From positions 18,859 through 82,858 of the forward strand of contig MHGF01000023.1 of the NCBI GenBank assembly GCA_001805445.1: a DNA stretch of 64,000 nucleotides, given 5' to 3'. This document shows, one piece after another, positions 8,771 through 53,418 of the stretch. The notes below the pieces were generated by a model. The model did not search any database. It was not told the DNA's origin and worked only from the letters and a program-made list of their open reading frames with translations. This stretch comes from Omnitrophica WOR_2 bacterium GWF2_43_52. Its GTDB lineage: Bacteria > Omnitrophota > Gorgyraeia > Gygaellales > UBA12090. Position numbers and translations under genes: made by a program. Within the stretch, counting starts at the first letter, position 1; every line of letters begins with the position of its first letter.

Positions 8771-8824
8771 CGCTGGCAAGTGAAGTGTTGCGGATAGCAA
8801 GAATTTATGTCACGGAGCACTATC

Positions 8825-8989
8825 GCGCTGTAAACTTAATTAGTATTAATAGTTCGCAAGTTTGTTAGCTTAAGCGAATGCGCGTGTCAGCTGTTTAGCT
8901 GTTTGGCTCAGTAGCTGTTTAGTTAAATTGTTAATCAGCAAAAGAGCAAATGAGCTAAGCAGCTACTGTTAAAATATACTTTTACAGCG
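8825..8989. repeat. Repeat family C, copy C1
   Basis: About 90% identical to 53105-53212 plus 53339-53408. Here it is uninterrupted; the 53-kb copy carries a nested B element. Confidence 0.65.
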
Positions 8990-13915: not shown

Positions 13916-14323
13916 ATAGATTCGTTTGAAAAAGTATATTTAGTTGCCCGCCTCGCGCAGGATAAGAAAGCAGAGGATATCAAGCTCCTGGATATGCGCG
14001 GGGTGAGCAACTTCTGTGATTTCTTCGTTCTCTTGACCGTATCCTCAAGCCGAAGGGCGCAGGCTGTTTCTGACAGTATAAAGGAAGAGCTGTTGAAGCA
14101 GCAGGTCAGGCATAAGGCAGAAGAGGGTACCCCTGAGTCAGGCTGGCTGCTGCTTGACCTATACGATGTCGTAGTGCATATCTTTGACGCCCAGGCGCGA
14201 GAGTTCTTTAACCTTGACAGGCTCTGGGCTGATGCCCCAAGTTTGGAATTTCCCCTAAAGAAACATGTCTCTAAACAAGGTAGAAAATCTTCTCACCGAA
14301 CTCCTCGCCAGAAAACTCAATGA
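13916..14323 (+). CDS. rsfS: Ribosomal silencing factor RsfS (Iojap); start codon uncertain (no ATG, GTG or TTG upstream in frame)
   Basis: DKKAEDIKLLDMRGVSNFCDFFVL…GWLLLDLYDVVVHIF…REFFNLDRLW matches RsfS. The homology begins upstream of the first ATG (13994). RBS GGAG lies at 13894-13897. Confidence 0.7.
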   Translation: MDSFEKVYLVARLAQDKKAEDIKLLDMRGVSNFCDFFVLLTVSSSRRAQAVSDSIKEELLKQQVRHKAEEGTPESGWLLLDLYDVVVHIFDAQAREFFNLDRLWADAPSLEFPLKKHVSKQGRKSSHRTPRQKTQ

Positions 14324-16013
14324 AACGTTCAATGCCCAAGAGCCATTATTTGGGCTTCAGGGACAGCTTTTAGAGTCTCCCAAGGATGAAGCCTTTGGTG
14401 ATATTTCTACCTCGGTTGCCCTCAAATTAGCCGCTATCCTTAAGCGTTCCCCCCGGGACATCGCGAAAGAAATTGTCGCGTGGCTTTACAAAGAAATAGC
14501 GGTGTCCTCGCTAAAAACCTCCATTGAGAAAATCGATATCGCGGGAGCGGGATTTATTAATTTTTACCTGTCGAAAGAATATTTTTATTCTCTTCTGAAA
14601 GAGGCCATTAGCTCGGAGTCGCCTTTTATGGGGCAGGCTAAAAAAGACAGGCGGGTGCTTGTTGAGTTTGTAAGCGCTAACCCTACAGGCCCGCTTTCTG
14701 TCGCCCATGGACGCCAGGCGGCAGTGGGGGATGCGCTGTGTAATGTGCTTAAATATGCAGGCTATGAACTAACCCGGGAATATTATCTCAATGATGAGGG
14801 CAATCAAATCAATATCTTGGGTAAGTCTATCGCCTTGCGTTTACAGGAACTAAAAGGAGAAAGAATAGAATTCCCCGAGGATCACTACCAGGGGGAGTAT
14901 ATCATAGATTTGGCAAAAGAATTGTATCAGGCCAGGGACGAGGGACGAGGGACGAGGGACGAGGGACCATGGACGAGGGATGAGGAACGAGAGACGAGAG
15001 ACGATGGACGAGAGACGATAGGCGAGAGACGATGGACGATAGACGATTGCCGCGACTATGGAGTAAAAAGAATCTTAGAAATAATTAAAAAGGAGCTTGA
15101 GGATTTCGGGGTTAGGTTTGATGCGTGGTATAGCCAGGCATCGTTACAGAAATCAGGCAAAATTGAGGAAACGCTTGCTTTGTTAAGGAGTAAAGGCTTT
15201 ATTTATGACCAGGATTCGGCAGTATGGTTTGCATCAACAAAATTCGGAGACGATAAAGATCGCGTCGTTATTAAATCTGACGGCAGCTATACCTATTTAG
15301 CCCCTGATATCGCCTATCATCAGGATAAATTCAGGCGGGGTTTTGACTGGTTGGTTAATCTGTGGGGCCCTGACCATCACGGCTATATCGGGCGGATGAA
15401 GGCCGCGGTAGAGGCATTAGGAAGAGAGAAAGAGGCTTTGAATGTCGTTATTGTCCAGCTGGCAACGCTTTATAAAGATGGCAAGGTCGTTTCTATGTCA
15501 ACCCGTAGAGGCGAGTACGTTACCTTGCGCCAGGTAATAGATGAGGTAGGAGTGGATGCGGGACGGTTTTTTTTCTTAATGCGCCGTACCGATAGCCACT
15601 TGGATTTTGATTTAGAGCTTGCCAAAAAACAAAGCTCTGAAAATCCCGTGTATTATATTCAATACGCCCACGCGCGCATTGCTAATATTTTAGCTCATGC
15701 CGGTATAGCGCCTGCTCAAATCAAAAACGCGGATATGTCGCTCTTAAAGGAAAAAGAGGAACTATCGTTACTTAAAGCAATTGCCCACTTTGAGAGCTGC
15801 CTGAAAATTGCCGAAATCCAGCTTGATCCTTATTGCGTCAGCACCTATCTGCAGGCTCTGGCAGAAAGTTTTCACCGCTTTTATGATCTTCATAGGGTAT
15901 TAGTTGACGATGTCCCGCTTAAAACCGCGCGGCTGAGCCTTATTTTAGGCTGTAAAACTGTTATTGCCGCGGCCCTTAAACTCTTAGGAGTAAGCGCTCC
16001 GGAGAAGATGTAA
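14265..16013 (+). CDS. argS: Arginine--tRNA ligase
   Basis: ANPTGPLSVAHGR (HIGH-class motif) and a C-terminal anticodon-binding domain. It carries an in-frame simple-sequence insert at 14933-15050. Confidence 0.93.
   Translation: MSLNKVENLLTELLARKLNETFNAQEPLFGLQGQLLESPKDEAFGDISTSVALKLAAILKRSPRDIAKEIVAWLYKEIAVSSLKTSIEKIDIAGAGFINFYLSKEYFYSLLKEAISSESPFMGQAKKDRRVLVEFVSANPTGPLSVAHGRQAAVGDALCNVLKYAGYELTREYYLNDEGNQINILGKSIALRLQELKGERIEFPEDHYQGEYIIDLAKELYQARDEGRGTRDEGPWTRDEERETRDDGRETIGERRWTIDDCRDYGVKRILEIIKKELEDFGVRFDAWYSQASLQKSGKIEETLALLRSKGFIYDQDSAVWFASTKFGDDKDRVVIKSDGSYTYLAPDIAYHQDKFRRGFDWLVNLWGPDHHGYIGRMKAAVEALGREKEALNVVIVQLATLYKDGKVVSMSTRRGEYVTLRQVIDEVGVDAGRFFFLMRRTDSHLDFDLELAKKQSSENPVYYIQYAHARIANILAHAGIAPAQIKNADMSLLKEKEELSLLKAIAHFESCLKIAEIQLDPYCVSTYLQALAESFHRFYDLHRVLVDDVPLKTARLSLILGCKTVIAAALKLLGVSAPEKM
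14933..15050 (+). repeat. Tandem heptanucleotide-type repeat (GGACGAG)n / (GAGACGA)n inside argS, in frame
   Basis: GGGACGAGGGACGAGGGACGAGGGACGAGGGACC…GAGAGACGAGAGACGATGGACGAGAGACGATAGGCGAGAGACGATGGACGATAGACGA encodes a low-complexity R/D/E/G/T insert (RDEGRGTRDEGPWTRDEERETRDDGRETIGERRWTIDD). Confidence 0.8.
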
Positions 16014-17707: not shown

Positions 17708-17872
17708 TCAGATGAAAGGTAACAGTTTAGTTTTTGGAAGTATCCGTCGGTGTCATTGCGAGCCCCGAAGGGGCGAAGCAATCTTATAAAAAGACTGCTT
17801 CGTCGCTGCCGCTCCTCGCAGTGACACGGATGCTTCTACGATGAAAGACATTTTGTTTATGCCTGGCATTGA
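17693..17872. mobile_element. Composite MITE-like insertion: ATGCCAGGCAT palindromic terminal inverted repeats enclosing a family-A repeat (17750-17827)
   Basis: Ends are CAATGCCAGGCATAGTCAGATGAAA … TTTGTTTATGCCTGGCATTG. The same two ends occur adjacent to each other at 37937-37985, and variants flank 42899-43226. The left repeat supplies the recJ stop codon; the right end abuts the rpmB stop. Confidence 0.6.
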
Positions 17873-35300: not shown

Positions 35301-35430
35301 GATACACGAATTCCCACGAATTGCACACTAATCATCACGAATACAGCGACGAAGTAATTCGTGTGTATTTGTGTGTAATTTGTGCCTATTCGTGCAAAAT
35401 AAAGGTTTTTCAGCAGTAACTAAACTATTA
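35301..35430 (+). repeat. Repeat family B, copy B1 (CACGAATTACACAC-type structured ~125-bp element)
   Basis: More than 90% identical to 43036-43165 (reverse complement) and 53213-53340. It has internal inverted repeats and ends in TTTTTCAGCAGTAACTAA. Confidence 0.7.
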
Positions 35431-37985: not shown

Positions 37986-38012
37986 GAAAAAGCTTTGACA
38001 AGGAGGATAAAA

Positions 38013-40457
38013 ATGGATTCCTACAAAAATAAAAATAACAAAGGTGTGGCATTAATTATGGCTTTGGGGGTTTCCAGTGTTTTGCTTACCTTGAGTATGG
38101 CCTATGTGGGCGGGGCTATACAGGAGAGTAATCTCAGCCAGCGTTATCAGGATTCTATGACTGCGCTTTATGAGGCAGAGCGGGGGTTAGCCTATGCCTT
38201 CGGTGAGGCGCAAAATGCGGGGTATGACTGGTTTACCCATGATGTAGATAGCAATGATGCCAATAGGAATGGCGATACCACGGAATTCATAAGGCCAGCC
38301 AACTCTCCTGGAGTAACATTAGGAGATGTTAGGGATAATCAGGGAATAGTAATCAATAGTGCAGGTAATTACCAGATACCCTTAGGAGGGGCTTCTCTTA
38401 TTCAGGTGCGCAGTTACACCAATCCTAATGATACAAACCAGATGTTTCTTATGGCTCAAGCTACCGTAGGCTCTGCCAGCCGTACCTTAAAGACCAAGAT
38501 TATCCGCAGGCCGCTATTCAAATATTTTTATTACTATCCTGGGTGGAAATATTTTGAAGGCAGTGATTTTGACGGAGAAGGAATAGGCGGTGTCTATGTC
38601 AAAGATGGTATAACCTTACGCAATGTAAATTTTAAAAACATAACTGAATTAGCCACCGGTCCTAACGGATATATCGTAGCGGCAAGTGATCAATATACCT
38701 CTCCTAAAGGAGTAGATTGGTTCATAGGGGGGATTAACGGAAAAGCGCCTTTACCCTCTAAGTATGACAGCAGTGGGCAACTTGTTTGGGATGACGGATA
38801 TAACGGCAATAACCCTTGGGGGCAGTGGAGGTGGCCGCCTCAGTACTCCTTTCCGTGGGACTGGAGGCGCGTCTATGACCATTTTTTTAATCCAGGAACG
38901 GTTAACAAGGTTACTCTCCCTACTAAGGATGATGCAGTGAATAATTTATGGCCAGAGTGGCAGTGGAATAAATATCCGCAGAGTGATAATTCCGAAGTAC
39001 CGGTACAGTTTTGTAACCCTTGCGGGGAGCGCGATATTAACGGAGATGGAGTGAAGGATACAGTCTATGCCACTCCCCAGTATTGGGCGGCGTTTTCAGA
39101 AGCAAGATGCGGTGCGGGGAAAACAAATAACGAGTGCGGCCTCATTGACCCGGATTTCTGGAGGGATAAGATTTATGACCGCCAGACTCCGACCGAAATG
39201 GTAAGGTATCTTCATACCAAAAAGCAGGCAGGGGCATGGCAGGGGTGGGTTAATAGCGCTACCATTCCTTTAGGACAAGACCAGTATAACGAAGGCCAGC
39301 CTTTGTCTTCAGTGGTAAAAGAGGGACAAACCGGCGGCTATGATATTGAAATGCCTAAGATTGATCAAAACTATGCCGGGCTGGCGAAAAAGGACGGCCT
39401 CTATATCGGTGAGGATGGGGTGTATCTTAACGGAAGCCCGGACTCTTTGCCATCCTGCATAAGAGATAATGTAGAATTTTTTAATACGCTCCGTCCGCAG
39501 GATAGAAACGGGGATGGCACCCTTGACCCGGAAAATGTCTTAGAGATTAATATTGAGCAATGCCGGACGACAAGGGAGGTGCCGAATAACGGCATTATCT
39601 ATGTTGCCCACAAGAATCTCCGGTTAACCAATGCCAAACAAATGCCGGATAATGGCCTGACAGTGGCCTCTCCTTATAATATCTATATAAAGGGTAATTA
39701 TAACTATGATCCTTCCAATGACCCGGATACGAATGATCGCAACTGGCGCCCGTCTGCGGTTATCAGCAATAGTTATGTCTATATTCTTTCCGGCAACTTT
39801 ACCGACCCTCAGGCTCTGCCTGATTACGTCGTTCCCCGTGAATATCCGTATGAAACAACCAGGATTGCTAGTAACATTGATTATAATAATGCAACCCAAA
39901 GAGCGACTTTGCAAAATAAGGTACAAACTTATTTTGGGTTACCTAATTTTACTATGGCAGGAGTGAACAGCAAAACTGGGCTGGAGAGTAAGATTCGCAG
40001 CCAGCATGCAAGCGAATGTAGCAATACCATGCCTAATATAGCCAGCCCTACTACGGTAAGAAGCGCTATTGTGTCTCCCAAAGATATGACTGGGGTAAGC
40101 TGGGATGAAAACAAGTTTTATCAGCTGGAGCGCTGGCCTACCAATCCGGTGCTAAGAGGCGCGTTTATTCTTTTGGGAGAAAGCTGGGTAAAGGATAACG
40201 AGGGTAATGATATACAGGATATCCCTATTTATGGTTATGACTGGCAAGGCGTTCCTATTAATACCCCCCGGAGTGTACGCAGAGGCACAGGCGGCAGTGC
40301 GACTATTGACAAGGGAGAGGATGTAATGTGGATCAATACGCCGGGCTCCAAGTTAAAATACGAATACTTGTTTGACACTGATACTATGCCTCCCGGGAAT
40401 CTTGCCGGTGGCACGGAAGCCGGCTGGCAGGAGGTTAGCGATTTCAATCATTCCTAG
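38013..40457 (+). CDS. Giant (~815 aa) PilX_N-domain minor-pilin-like protein, paralog 1; candidate pilus-tip adhesin
   Basis: The N-terminus NKGVALIMALGVSSVLLTLSMAYVGGAIQESNLSQRYQDSMTALYEAERG matches the PilX N-terminal domain. The body is rich in N/Y/W/G/D. The C-terminus …AGWQEVSDFNHS is shared with paralog 2. The ORF track starts at 37974. Confidence 0.65.
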   Translation: MDSYKNKNNKGVALIMALGVSSVLLTLSMAYVGGAIQESNLSQRYQDSMTALYEAERGLAYAFGEAQNAGYDWFTHDVDSNDANRNGDTTEFIRPANSPGVTLGDVRDNQGIVINSAGNYQIPLGGASLIQVRSYTNPNDTNQMFLMAQATVGSASRTLKTKIIRRPLFKYFYYYPGWKYFEGSDFDGEGIGGVYVKDGITLRNVNFKNITELATGPNGYIVAASDQYTSPKGVDWFIGGINGKAPLPSKYDSSGQLVWDDGYNGNNPWGQWRWPPQYSFPWDWRRVYDHFFNPGTVNKVTLPTKDDAVNNLWPEWQWNKYPQSDNSEVPVQFCNPCGERDINGDGVKDTVYATPQYWAAFSEARCGAGKTNNECGLIDPDFWRDKIYDRQTPTEMVRYLHTKKQAGAWQGWVNSATIPLGQDQYNEGQPLSSVVKEGQTGGYDIEMPKIDQNYAGLAKKDGLYIGEDGVYLNGSPDSLPSCIRDNVEFFNTLRPQDRNGDGTLDPENVLEINIEQCRTTREVPNNGIIYVAHKNLRLTNAKQMPDNGLTVASPYNIYIKGNYNYDPSNDPDTNDRNWRPSAVISNSYVYILSGNFTDPQALPDYVVPREYPYETTRIASNIDYNNATQRATLQNKVQTYFGLPNFTMAGVNSKTGLESKIRSQHASECSNTMPNIASPTTVRSAIVSPKDMTGVSWDENKFYQLERWPTNPVLRGAFILLGESWVKDNEGNDIQDIPIYGYDWQGVPINTPRSVRRGTGGSATIDKGEDVMWINTPGSKLKYEYLFDTDTMPPGNLAGGTEAGWQEVSDFNHS

Positions 40458-40480
40458 AGCAAAAGCTCATTAAAGAAAGG

Positions 40481-42892
40481 ATGGGTACTATGTCTTCCTA
40501 CAAAAATAAAAATAATAAAGGCGTGGCATTGATTCTGGCGCTGGGGGTTTCCAGTGTTTTGCTTACCCTGGGCATGGCCTATGTGGGCGGAGCAATACAG
40601 GAGAGCAATCTCAGCCAGCGCTATCAGGATTCCATGGCTAGTTTATACGAGGCAGAGCGGGGAGTTCAGTATGCGGTACTTGAGGCCAGGAATTCCGGAT
40701 GGCAGTTTTTAACCCATAATGTTAATCCTGATAGGACATTGGCTCGGCAAACCGGCCCGGCCCTTATCCCGATAATCATCAGTGACGCGCAAAGGACCGT
40801 TGGTTTCGAAGCTGACGGAGATTATAGTATTGTGAGCCCTGCCTCAAGGATAGAAGTAAGGACGTATATTGACGCTGTACTAGATCCGCAGGATATCTTT
40901 GTTTTAGCCCGCAGCACCTCTTTGGCTACGAGCACCCAGAAAATAATCAAACTGCGCGTAGGTGCCAACTCGCTGTATCAGTATCAAATGTTTACTCCGG
41001 GAAGCATGGAATTGCGCTCAATTGACGGCAGAGGTATAGGCATGATACATGCTAATGGAAATATCCAGTGGCAGACGAATGGAAATGCCCGAAATTTGGA
41101 GAGTGTTGACTGCGCTGGCTTTATGCGCTATAGTTACAGTTACCGTGTCCCTGCATACCTCTTAGACGGTTTAGACGGAATTATGGATGGGAACGCCCCC
41201 TTGCCAAATGGGTCTTCTACTTACAGGGAGTGGAACCTTAACGATTATAATACGTGGTATAGCGGCTTAACTGCTGCTCAACAAACTCAGGCTGTAGCTC
41301 CTCCTACAGTACCGTATAATACTCCCTCTAATGTCAATAATTTCCCCTGGCTAAAATTAAACTGGTGGTATAATAGCAACCAAAATTACAGCTGGCACCC
41401 GTCATGGGCTTCAATACAAGGTGATTTTGCCTCTGCTTCACTTCAGCAGAATTCCGGCGTATCGTATAACTGGAACGAAGCGGTGGATACTTCAAATTCA
41501 GGCGGGTTAAGCCCCCATTATAATTGGAGTTTTGGTTCAGTTGCCAGTTACCCTATATTCTATAATACACTGGGCAGTAATTTTGATACCTATAATGGCA
41601 TCGGTAATTATGATTATACAAATTTTCGCAATCAAAGTGTCGATAACAGTAGAGTTGATTCATTATTTGGCTCCGGTATGCGTATCAATGGCGTTCAAAT
41701 CCCCTTTAGGTTAACAGGAGGCGACTCCTACCAATTTGACCCCTTTTATAAAGATCCTGTGGTAGACGCTCCGCGTACTGTCAGGTACGCGAACACAGAA
41801 CTACTGCCTAATAATTGGAGTACTTTTTCAAATGGGGCAACTATCCCGAATAATTTTATGGGAGATCCGCAGCCGCACGCGCTCGAGCCTTTAAGCGCGA
41901 TACTCAAAGATAGAAATAACGGAGGCAAGTATATTGACCCGGTTCCTGTTGATTCGGCTTATTTTAGCTCTTTGGCGGCGACAGGCGGGATAGTGATTCG
42001 CTGCGATGGCACTATTACTAATCGCGCGGATATCCCCTTGGGAGTTATCAGTACTTCCAGTTTTATCAATCATATTCATCCTTCCCTGGTGGGTGGGGTT
42101 CCGCAGCCAGACCAGGTAGTCAATGTTGATATAGGAACACTCAAGAATTGGGCAGCGGCTAATAACTTTAACGGGGTAATCTATTTTGATGGAAGCTCTT
42201 GCAGCGGCAGCAGCGGCATCCGCCTGAAGAATGCTAAAGAACTACCCGACCAGACAGCCACTAACACCAGCGGCGGCCTTAGCGTTTATTCCACGCGCCA
42301 GGTATATCTGCAGGGCGATTTTAATTATGACAGCACCAGGAGTGATTCATATAACGAGGATATCTGGCAGCCGGGAAGTGTGATTGCCACCAGCAGGGTG
42401 TATTATCTTTCTGATGGTTTTAGTGACCCGCAAACCTTGCCCACGCTGGTGCATAATAGGAATTGGCCTCAGATTACTGATGCTCCTAGCGCATTAATGT
42501 ATTGGACTAATAATGTGGGAAACATGCCTAATGAGGCAGCCCCTGAAGCAGGGAGCCAGAGTACCGTTACCTATCGCGCGTCTATTGTTTCTACAGATAG
42601 TTTATGGCAGGATAATATCCTTGAGCGCTGGAGAAACGGGCGAACCGGCCCGGATTATAGGCGCAGGATTATTGGCGCTCAGGTAGCGATAAATGGAACC
42701 AATAATGTTGTTTCTTCTTGGAATCGCGGGCGTTCCTGGGGAGGCCCCGCGCCTTTTCTTACCAGTTCTTATGATGGGGGCGCAACAACTTTTGAATATG
42801 ACCCTATGTTATTACAGCGAACCCCCCCGGGTGATTTCCTAGCTGGTTTTGAGGCTTCATGGCAGGAGGTGTCTGACTTTGATAACGCGTGA
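40481..42892 (+). CDS. Giant (803 aa) PilX_N-domain minor-pilin-like protein, paralog 2
   Basis: The first ~75 aa are about 85% identical to paralog 1 (about 88% at the DNA level over ~170 bp), with a divergent core and a conserved C-terminal …ASWQEVSDFDNA. Confidence 0.65.
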   Translation: MGTMSSYKNKNNKGVALILALGVSSVLLTLGMAYVGGAIQESNLSQRYQDSMASLYEAERGVQYAVLEARNSGWQFLTHNVNPDRTLARQTGPALIPIIISDAQRTVGFEADGDYSIVSPASRIEVRTYIDAVLDPQDIFVLARSTSLATSTQKIIKLRVGANSLYQYQMFTPGSMELRSIDGRGIGMIHANGNIQWQTNGNARNLESVDCAGFMRYSYSYRVPAYLLDGLDGIMDGNAPLPNGSSTYREWNLNDYNTWYSGLTAAQQTQAVAPPTVPYNTPSNVNNFPWLKLNWWYNSNQNYSWHPSWASIQGDFASASLQQNSGVSYNWNEAVDTSNSGGLSPHYNWSFGSVASYPIFYNTLGSNFDTYNGIGNYDYTNFRNQSVDNSRVDSLFGSGMRINGVQIPFRLTGGDSYQFDPFYKDPVVDAPRTVRYANTELLPNNWSTFSNGATIPNNFMGDPQPHALEPLSAILKDRNNGGKYIDPVPVDSAYFSSLAATGGIVIRCDGTITNRADIPLGVISTSSFINHIHPSLVGGVPQPDQVVNVDIGTLKNWAAANNFNGVIYFDGSSCSGSSGIRLKNAKELPDQTATNTSGGLSVYSTRQVYLQGDFNYDSTRSDSYNEDIWQPGSVIATSRVYYLSDGFSDPQTLPTLVHNRNWPQITDAPSALMYWTNNVGNMPNEAAPEAGSQSTVTYRASIVSTDSLWQDNILERWRNGRTGPDYRRRIIGAQVAINGTNNVVSSWNRGRSWGGPAPFLTSSYDGGATTFEYDPMLLQRTPPGDFLAGFEASWQEVSDFDNA

Positions 42893-42898
42893 TAAAGA

Positions 42899-43226
42899 TA
42901 ATGCCAGGCATACACAAGCAGTGCTCTGTCAAATTATATTTTAACTGCAGCTCTTTAGCTGATTAGCTAATGAGCTAAACAGCCGATGAATTCATTAGCT
43001 TGAACTAACGAACCTGCGAACTATTAACAATTAAGTTAGTTACTGCTGAAAAACCTTTATTTTGCACGAATAGGCACAAATTACACACAAATACACACGA
43101 ATTACTTCGCCGCTGTATTCGTGATGATTAGTGTGTAATTCGTGGGAATTCGTGTTTAAAAGACGTTTATTCAGTGATAACTAAGTTAACAACAAATAGT
43201 ATACAAGTTGTCTATGCCTGGCATTT
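42899..43226. mobile_element. Composite MITE: ATGCCAGGCAT-type terminal repeats enclosing a degenerate family-C fragment (42945-43035, minus) and family-B copy B2 (43036-43165, minus)
   Basis: Left end AATGCCAGGCATACACAAGC, right end GTTGTCTATGCCTGGCATTT. The interior matches the C and B elements at 53.1-53.4 kb. Confidence 0.6.
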
Positions 43227-44138: not shown

Positions 44139-44255
44139 AGTAACAGTTTAGCTCCTGGAAGTGTCCGTCGGTGTCATTGCGAGCCCCGAAGGGGCGAAGC
44201 AATCCTATAAAGAGACTGCTTCGTCGCTGCCGCTCCTCGCAGTGACACGAATGTT
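44139..44255. repeat. MITE family A, copy A3, in the rpsO leader
   Basis: About 95% identical to 17718-17835, including flanks GTAACAGTTTAG…GGAAGT(A/G)TCCGTCG and terminal repeats GTGTCATTGCGAG / CTCGCAGTGACAC. Confidence 0.75.
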
Positions 44256-44308
44256 TCCGAGGGCTGAACTATTACAAACAATAATGTTTTATAAGCGGAG
44301 GTGTTACG

Positions 44309-53090: not shown

Positions 53091-53104
53091 GTAGCGCACT
53101 GTAA

Positions 53105-53408
53105 ACTTAATTAGTAATAATAGTTCGTGAGTTTGTTAGCTTAAGCGAATGTGCGTATCAGCTGTTTAGCTTTTCAGCTCATTAGCTGTTTAGTTAGTTA
53201 TCAATGAAAAAGCGTCTTTTAAACACGAATTCCCACGAATTACACACTAATCATCACGAATACAGCGACGAAGTAATTCGTGTGTATTTGTGTGTAATTT
53301 GTGCCTATTCGTGCAAAATAAATGTTTTTCAGCAGTAACTAGTTAAATTGTTAATCAGCTAAAGAGCAAATGAGCTAAGCAGCTACTGTTAAAAAATAAT
53401 TTTACAGC
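53105..53408. mobile_element. Nested repeat: family-C copy C2 (53105-53212 plus 53339-53408) interrupted by family-B copy B3 (53213-53340)
   Basis: Aligning it with the uninterrupted C1 (8825-8989) shows the B element inserted precisely at …AGCTGTTTAGTTA|AATTGTTAATCAGC…. Confidence 0.7.
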
Positions 53409-53418
53409 GTACTATTGT

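Follow-up and report, generated by a model that had tools for sequence, protein, structure and literature searches.

A translated heptanucleotide repeat, probably expanded in place, in an Omnitrophota gene for arginyl-tRNA synthetase

How a tandem repeat with a seven-nucleotide unit comes to lie, in frame, in the middle of an essential gene is the question raised by argS, the arginine–tRNA ligase gene of Omnitrophica WOR_2 bacterium GWF2_43_52. Herein, we analyzed a window of 64,000 nucleotides (nt) of this genome (contig MHGF01000023.1, positions 18,859–82,858; all coordinates follow window numbering). A preceding sequence-only reading of the window had described an in-frame heptanucleotide expansion inside argS, between the flanks LAKELYQ and GVKRILEII, and the description of both the array and its flanks was correct: 16 units lie within an open reading frame (ORF) of 582 amino acids (aa), in which frame 0 is kept (Table 1). 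The array is probably a translated, partly decayed heptanucleotide repeat that was expanded in place in a permissive surface loop of arginyl-tRNA synthetase (ArgRS).

The heptamer array in the argS reading frame

Tandem Repeats Finder reported a period of 7 at 14934–15039 (15.1 copies, 80% matches, score 121, consensus AGGGACG), together with a second, overlapping period-7 row at 14987–15047. Units 1–8 read, in order, AGGGACG (four times), AGGGACC, ATGGACG, AGGGATG, and AGGAACG, and units 9–16 read AGAGACG (twice), ATGGACG, AGAGACG, ATAGGCG, AGAGACG, ATGGACG, and ATAGACG. The units drift along the array, from the form ACGATNG near the 3′ flank through ACGAGAG in the middle to five near-perfect ACGAGGG units at the 5′ end. 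When the degenerate two-unit pattern GACGADRGACGA was searched with at most one mismatch, 14 matches fell in 14937–15046 and one elsewhere in the window; approximately 0.7 matches would be expected by chance in the whole window, and a count of 15 was reached in none of 100 shuffles. With at least three head-to-tail copies beyond chance expectation, the argS array is a heptameric simple sequence repeat (SSR). No second copy was found in the 64-kb window, whose other dispersed repeats are unrelated to it.

The composition of the array sets it apart from its gene. It is 60.7% GC and 78.6% purine, compared with 45.2% GC in the remainder of argS; the window as a whole has 44.6% GC. In the argS reading frame it is translated as ARDEGRGTRDEGPWTRDEERETRDDGRETIGERRWTIDD, a peptide rich in R, D, E, G, and T with a 7-residue period, containing 14 acidic residues (D and E) and nine R. 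Frame 0 is open through the array, and stops occur in both other sense frames. The stop-free frame by itself says little about selection, since only three units could potentially have borne a stop and the probability of avoiding these by chance is approximately 0.3.

The array was recovered in other assemblies with the same sequence. It is base-for-base identical in the window and in L001 and L002, two k141 contigs, with different European Nucleotide Archive samples and assemblers represented among the three. Contig L001 is 99.75% identical to the window over 9.45 kb and L002 99.41% identical over 7.97 kb, and outside the array the two contigs differ from the window at 0.25–0.6% of bases; within argS, L001 and L002 show nine substitutions elsewhere relative to the window and none in the array. 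The 90% protein cluster contains three distinct full-length sequences, all of 582 aa, the other members being fragments, and at least 13 contigs encode the 582-aa protein, which has four NCBI accessions. At the level of assemblies, no array length variant was detected among the full-length members of this cluster or in L001 and L002, and thus no copy-number polymorphism within the population was seen. A metagenome scan for length variants with a degenerate left-flank pattern yielded a chance match and a single contig of relevance, itself chimeric.

Table 1. Positions of argS, of the parts of its repeat array, and of the modelled loop in the window
Feature	Position	Strand	Basis
argS, arginine–tRNA ligase, 582 aa	14265..16013	+	ORF call
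Heptanucleotide tandem array, 16 units, register AGGGACG	14934..15045	+	Tandem Repeats Finder, unit table, pattern enrichment
Near-perfect 5′ block, AGGGACG four times and AGGGACC; five GGG runs with 4-nt loops	14934..14968	+	Sequence, G-quadruplex motif scan
Degenerate 3′ block, ATGGACG/AGAGACG/ATAGACG-type units; resembles the 5-unit arrays of L003, L004, and L005	14969..15045	+	DNA comparison
17th unit ATTGCCG, merging into the conserved flank codons GAC GAT TGC CGC (D-D-C-R)	15046..15052	+	Flanks of relatives
Residues 226–258, low-confidence coil between helix 211–225 and helix 259–280	14940..15038	+	AlphaFold2 secondary structure

Copy number in relatives and the ArgRS connector

Related genomes carry a shorter version of the repeat. 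Two relatives, L003 (75% protein identity) and L004 (69%), have the same heptamer at the identical site in only about five units, which read ACGAGGG ACGATAG ACGAGGG ACGATAG ACGAGTG in L003 and TCGATGG ACGATAG ACGATTA TTGATAG ACGATTG in L004. The repeat spans 117 nt in the window and 33 nt in these relatives, a difference of 84 nt, corresponding to 12 units or 28 codons. Copy number therefore differs between related genomes, from about five units to 16–17. The sequence-only reading had put the insertion at about 35 residues; the gain is smaller, 28 aa when the nearest repeat-bearing relatives are the reference and 32 aa over the most common loop length of 12 aa.

The 3′ end of the array runs into sequence that is conserved among relatives. 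The flank reads GATTGCCG in L004, L450, and L451 and GAGTGCCG in L003, and the codons GAC GAT TGC (D-D-C) are kept even without the repeat, as in GAAGATTGCCGG of L451 and GAGGATTGCCGG of L450. At the protein level, the C-terminal ends of the loop are of the form DDCRD, EDCRE, or DDCKE across relatives. It is plausible, judging from these flanks, that the D-D-C segment was the local seed of the heptamer. The gradient of units, from degenerate and T-rich at the 3′ side to near-perfect and G-rich at the 5′ side, suggests successive expansions, of which the 5′ block would be the youngest.

The product of argS is a class Ia arginyl-tRNA synthetase, as indicated by the domains of its homologues (PF03485, PF00750, and PF05746 in precomputed Pfam assignments), a match to the Campylobacter jejuni ArgRS structure 3fnr at an E-value of 1.5e-99, the invariant columns that it keeps, and its modelled fold. 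Its nearest database relatives are annotated as arginine–tRNA ligases of Omnitrophica WOR_2 bacteria, one of which (P0121) is exactly the window protein. About 150 family-invariant positions are intact, the motifs SVAH and MSTR among them. In this Omnitrophota clade, SVAH (residues 145–148) is the form taken by the class I "HIGH" signature, with the first His replaced by Ser, and it is invariant across 74 aligned homologues. A tblastn search found no further argS copy within the 64-kb window.

The AlphaFold2 model, built from a 74-sequence alignment, had a mean predicted local distance difference test (pLDDT) score of 89.7 and a predicted template modelling score of 0.89, and superposed on 3fnr with a template modelling score of 0.90. 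Confidence dropped at the insert, where the pLDDT values of the 10-residue blocks spanning residues 221–260 were 73, 48, 56, and 73. The insert forms a coil between two helices in the model, and the aligned connector of 3fnr has 11 residues (124 to 136), in agreement with the earlier proposal that the insert lies in a loop. Judging from the secondary structure of the model, we take this coil and its flanking helices to belong to the catalytic-domain insertion.

Across 121 Omnitrophota ArgRS sequences, the spacing from DLAKEL to YGV ranged from 9 to 44 residues with a mode of 12 (66 sequences). The connector has 15–31 residues in the nearest clade, and the 44 residues of the window protein are the maximum of the whole set. 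No sequence conservation was found within the connector across the 121 sequences. Proteins that are 84–89% identical outside the loop may carry wholly different loops, and therefore the connector turns over far faster than the remaining gene. As modelled, the connector is a hypervariable, permissive, and disordered loop.

In other relatives the same site holds palindromes instead of heptamers. GC-rich, in-frame DNA of the form GGGCAGGC-cttgt-GCCTGCCC occupies the connector of L450 (1730–1790), and in-frame palindromes are likewise present in L451 (1670–1720, GGCGCGA-ttta-TCGCGCC), L452 (1650–1720, GGCGGATCCGCC), and L453 (1660–1720, GCAGGCGCCTGC). From these sequences, the connector looks like a recurrent acceptor of repetitive DNA. 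Rickettsia palindromic elements (RPE) are reportedly inserted in frame in protein-coding genes as well (Ogata et al. 2000). The argS insert resembles them in that repetitive in-frame DNA is tolerated in a surface-exposed segment of a housekeeping protein that still functions, and the ArgRS loop of sister lineages does hold small palindromes. However, RPE are dispersed palindromic mobile elements of 100–150 nt, whereas the argS insert consists of tandem heptamers without dyad symmetry that most likely grew in place. Unlike palindromic mobile elements of the RPE kind or those similar to repetitive extragenic palindromes or miniature inverted-repeat transposable elements, the array shows no significant fold, and neither an inverted counterpart nor another copy of it was found in the window. 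Elsewhere in the window, an intergenic GC-rich double hairpin at 622–709 (CGCCTGCCGGCAGGCAGGCGG... GCTTCGCCGTGAGGCGAGCC; about 70% GC in a genome of 45% GC) belongs to the type of palindrome that relatives carry in frame in their ArgRS genes.

Some loops appear to be mosaic. Protein P0024 is 88% identical to P0005 and P0010, yet its loop and flanks match those of P0013, to which it is 72% identical. Contig L005 (3340–3460) resembles the window at first but departs from it some 110 nt ahead of the repeat. Such mosaicism could reflect indels, possibly recombination, or chimeric metagenome assembly.

Expansion in place and its rivals

The loop DNA of this Omnitrophota subclade has about five ACGAKRG units, the last of which runs into the conserved D-D-C codons, and the lineage of the window has 12 more. 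If the array was expanded in place, the extra units would have been added via slipped-strand mispairing. Because argS is essential and present in a single copy, a net change could persist only in steps of three units (21 nt, 7 aa), and the growth would correspond to four steps of 21 nt. The unit GGGACGA is hydrophilic and stop-free in every frame (G, R, G, T, R, D, E), so that a soluble, disordered, and charged loop would be produced, and the expanded loop would leave the fold and the conserved catalytic residues undisturbed. No function would be required of the insert, the connector acting as a dumping ground for in-frame GC-rich DNA, including the palindromes of sister lineages.

Several points weigh against this account. 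Slippage is inferred, no intermediate copy numbers were found between about five and 16 units, and the neutrality of the insert is an assumption. Moreover, the heptamer lineages (the window, P0002, and P0007) are not mutual closest relatives by identity outside the loop, and P0002 is 84% identical to P0003, whose loop holds a palindrome instead. Such a distribution calls for losses of the repeat, for its independent origin in more than one lineage, or for recombination.

Assembly errors are known to arise at tandem repeats, and an array that had been collapsed, over-extended, or mis-joined would conceal a shorter or different loop; the sequence-only reading had named an assembly artefact as one possibility. 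Two contigs are chimeric exactly at the repeat: L005 continues with the variant units ACGATAG GCGATAG ACGATAG GCGATAG and then a tRNA-Lys locus, and L448 with five perfect units and then high-GC HypA-like DNA. However, three independent assemblies that differ elsewhere agree at every base of the 112-nt array, and the frame is intact in the protein recovered from the many contigs mentioned above. In addition, the longest perfectly periodic stretch, about 34 nt, is below the length of short reads, and unique anchors for the unit count are provided by the 11 degenerate units. For these reasons an artefact is extremely improbable. The alternative offered by the same reading, a length-variable insertion, would make the array a hypermutable locus, in which frequent three-unit changes generate ArgRS loop-length variants as in contingency loci. 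The five perfect units, the difference of five against 16–17 units between lineages, and the strain-level variant L005, which has other units (ACGATAG/GCGATAG) at the same junction, are consistent with such behavior. But the comparison of strains showed no variation, either among the three full-length sequences of the 90% cluster or between strains that differ by 0.25–0.6% elsewhere. Most units are degenerate, which suppresses slippage; in an essential gene present only once, a slip of one or two units would shift the frame and be lethal; and argS is outside the class of surface and restriction genes that use phase variation. Hypermutability is accordingly very unlikely.

The array might instead be a functional element, either as a G-quadruplex (G4) of the 5′ block, in mRNA or in non-template DNA, that tunes argS, or as an Arg/Asp/Glu-rich peptide that binds RNA or a partner. 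Appended charged segments aid tRNA binding in some eukaryotic synthetases. The sense strand at 14935–14965 has five GGG runs with ACGA loops, more than the four G3 tracts of a G3N1–7 motif, of which only three sites occur in the 64 kb, and G4-aware folding predicted a three-layer G4 in the 5′ block (−23.4 versus −20.4 kcal/mol without G4). In vitro, G4 structures are formed by the G-rich heptamers of Xanthomonas and Nostoc (PMC4692102). Against a function, relatives cannot form a G4, as their arrays contain just two GGG runs, the loop sequence is unconserved across the family, the feature is limited to one species-level lineage, and the acidic residues of the peptide are not fewer than the basic ones. 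The array showed no Rfam family match, apart from a sub-threshold snoRNA chance match on the other strand, and no significant RNA fold (z = −1.65), and a known RNA family or structured RNA at this site was rejected on these results. A regulatory role of the predicted G4 is possible but unsupported, because relatives lack the motif and nothing is conserved at the site; a functional element of either kind is unlikely. Import of the array, either through recombination between lineages or because a dispersed heptamer element was captured, would fit the mosaic loop of P0024, the divergence of L005 ahead of the repeat, the heptamer-bearing lineages that are not monophyletic by identity, and the intergenic hairpins formed by arrays of the related pattern GACGADR in other Omnitrophota (L006 and L026). 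However, no other copy of the unit array is present in the window, the mosaics may be chimeric metagenome assemblies, and import would account for the seed but not for the growth by 12 units. A local origin is favored because the conserved coding flank itself makes up the last unit at the 3′ end, and import seems rather unlikely. A wider proposal is that the connector is an active hot spot in Omnitrophota, where GC-rich repetitive DNA, selfish or slippage-prone, is inserted, expanded, and exchanged in frame in the manner of RPE, and that the newest G-rich block may form an mRNA G4 affecting argS translation. We regard it as speculative, with a modest chance of being right; if true, selfish or slippage-prone DNA would be colonizing an essential gene.

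Expansion in place, the reading that we prefer, would mean that a 7-nt repeat can reach about 16 units inside a single-copy essential gene, provided that the loop is permissive, that the encoded residues are benign in all three frames, and that changes come in threes. The argS array would thus illustrate clearly, in a natural setting, what limits the expansion of repeats in coding DNA. In practice, the repeat yields chimeric metagenome contigs, and the ArgRS loop can serve as a fast-evolving marker separating close Omnitrophota lineages. As a repeat the array is of an ordinary kind, only its location is uncommon, and it reveals no new system.

Heptamers elsewhere and neighboring features

Intragenic short repeats are also found in the phase-variable contingency loci of Neisseria, Haemophilus, and Helicobacter, which the argS array resembles in having a unit that is not a multiple of three, so that a single-unit slip shifts the frame. 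It differs from them in that argS is an essential housekeeping gene, most of the repeat has degenerated, polymorphism in length was not detected, and a frameshift would be lethal rather than adaptive. Only five units are perfect, there is a single argS copy in the window, and no variants occur in the 90% cluster, which sets the array outside this category. Lineage-specific low-complexity insertions are also known from aminoacyl-tRNA synthetases and from further core proteins, among others those of Plasmodium. Like these, the argS insert is disordered, compositionally biased, and located between conserved structural elements, without a known role. The Plasmodium-type inserts, however, are driven by an extreme base composition of the genome and by trinucleotide-type repeats, whereas the argS array consists of a GC- and purine-rich 7-nt unit in a genome of 45% GC.

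Further counterparts are the heptamer SSRs of prokaryotes, namely the GGGNATC and GGGACCG arrays and the cyanobacterial short tandemly repeated repetitive sequences. They share with the argS array a 7-nt unit with a GGG run, a head-to-tail arrangement of 2–26 units, G4 potential, occasional intragenic placement, and a copy number that varies between related genomes. Heptameric repeats are over-represented in prokaryotes and usually intergenic (Rehm et al. 2015, PMC4692102). In Xanthomonas and Nostoc, the G-rich GGGNATC arrays of 2–26 units are mostly intergenic and are under-represented on the coding strand (PMC4692102), and in Geobacter metallireducens, 49 elements of four GGGACCG units are located between and within genes (PMC2700814). 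The known heptamer SSRs occur in tens to hundreds of dispersed copies per genome, with a preference for four units and for intergenic positions near gene ends. In contrast, the argS array is single in the 64 kb, has 16 units, and occupies a mid-gene position on the coding strand of an essential gene, where it is translated; the dispersed, intergenic copies of the type described by Rehm et al. (2015) were absent from the window.

Short in-frame arrays of the pattern GACGADR, of 3.5–6.5 units, were found by Pfam scans in linkers or loops of core genes of other genomes. Their hosts are PyrK (in another Omnitrophota genome), ValRS, a second class I synthetase, Mfd (at two sites), HrpA, UvrD, CoaBC, a CoxM-like flavoprotein, and CobA-HemD. 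With 16 units, the argS array is longer than any of the core-gene cases from these scans. The earlier view that such a repeat is unusual in bacteria therefore holds for an array as long as this one, with about 16 units, at a central position in an essential gene, but not for the repeat type, since heptamers are over-represented in prokaryotes (PMC4692102) and short in-frame copies exist in other core genes.

Scanning 185,579 species genomes, we found at least 119 loci with 3.4 copies of GACGADR, distributed over many phyla; in many of these, a forward array is joined to its reverse complement in a hairpin. In viral contigs, 55 loci matched GACGADR, compared with 102, 57, and 117 for three permuted control heptamers. 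The notion of GACGADR as a special cross-phylum family was thus rejected: permuted heptamers are equally or more common, and therefore the unit itself is not special and heptamer repeats are generally common. In Chloroflexia, Omnitrophota, and other phyla, GACGADR arrays paired with reverse-complement arrays make long perfect hairpins of −58 to −70 kcal/mol (L069:2560–2635, L102:7514–7575, L008:6508–6590, L006:590–650, and L026:7225–7300), some of them followed by terminator-like T runs. In Ferrimonas gelatinilytica JCM 18720 (L081:4301–4850), heptamers of the GAAGGACGAAGGACG type make up a perfect array that spans 549 nt with about 78 units and is open in frame as (TKDEGRR)n in a 336-aa ORF without a real Pfam domain.

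The gene order around argS, CNNM-DUF5679-RsfS-ArgRS-RecJ, is conserved in relatives. The gene rsfS (13994–14323) overlaps the start of argS by 59 nt, and this overlap is kept in L003, L004, and L453. Further repeats occur in the window. Dispersed repeats of about 120–320 nt, with 90–98% identity in direct and inverted orientation, are located at 35304–35423, 43023–43197 (inverted), 53181–53355, 8821–8989, and 53092–53409, and contain short GTAATTTGTGT and AGCTGTTT tandem motifs. A pair of 118-nt repeats with 93% identity (17719–17836 and 44140–44257) carries the hairpin GCGAGCCCCGAAGGGGCGAAGC, one copy lying directly after recJ. Finally, a 246-nt direct repeat with 78% identity (38000–38245 and 40477–40722, 2.5 kb apart) is probably paralogous coding sequence.

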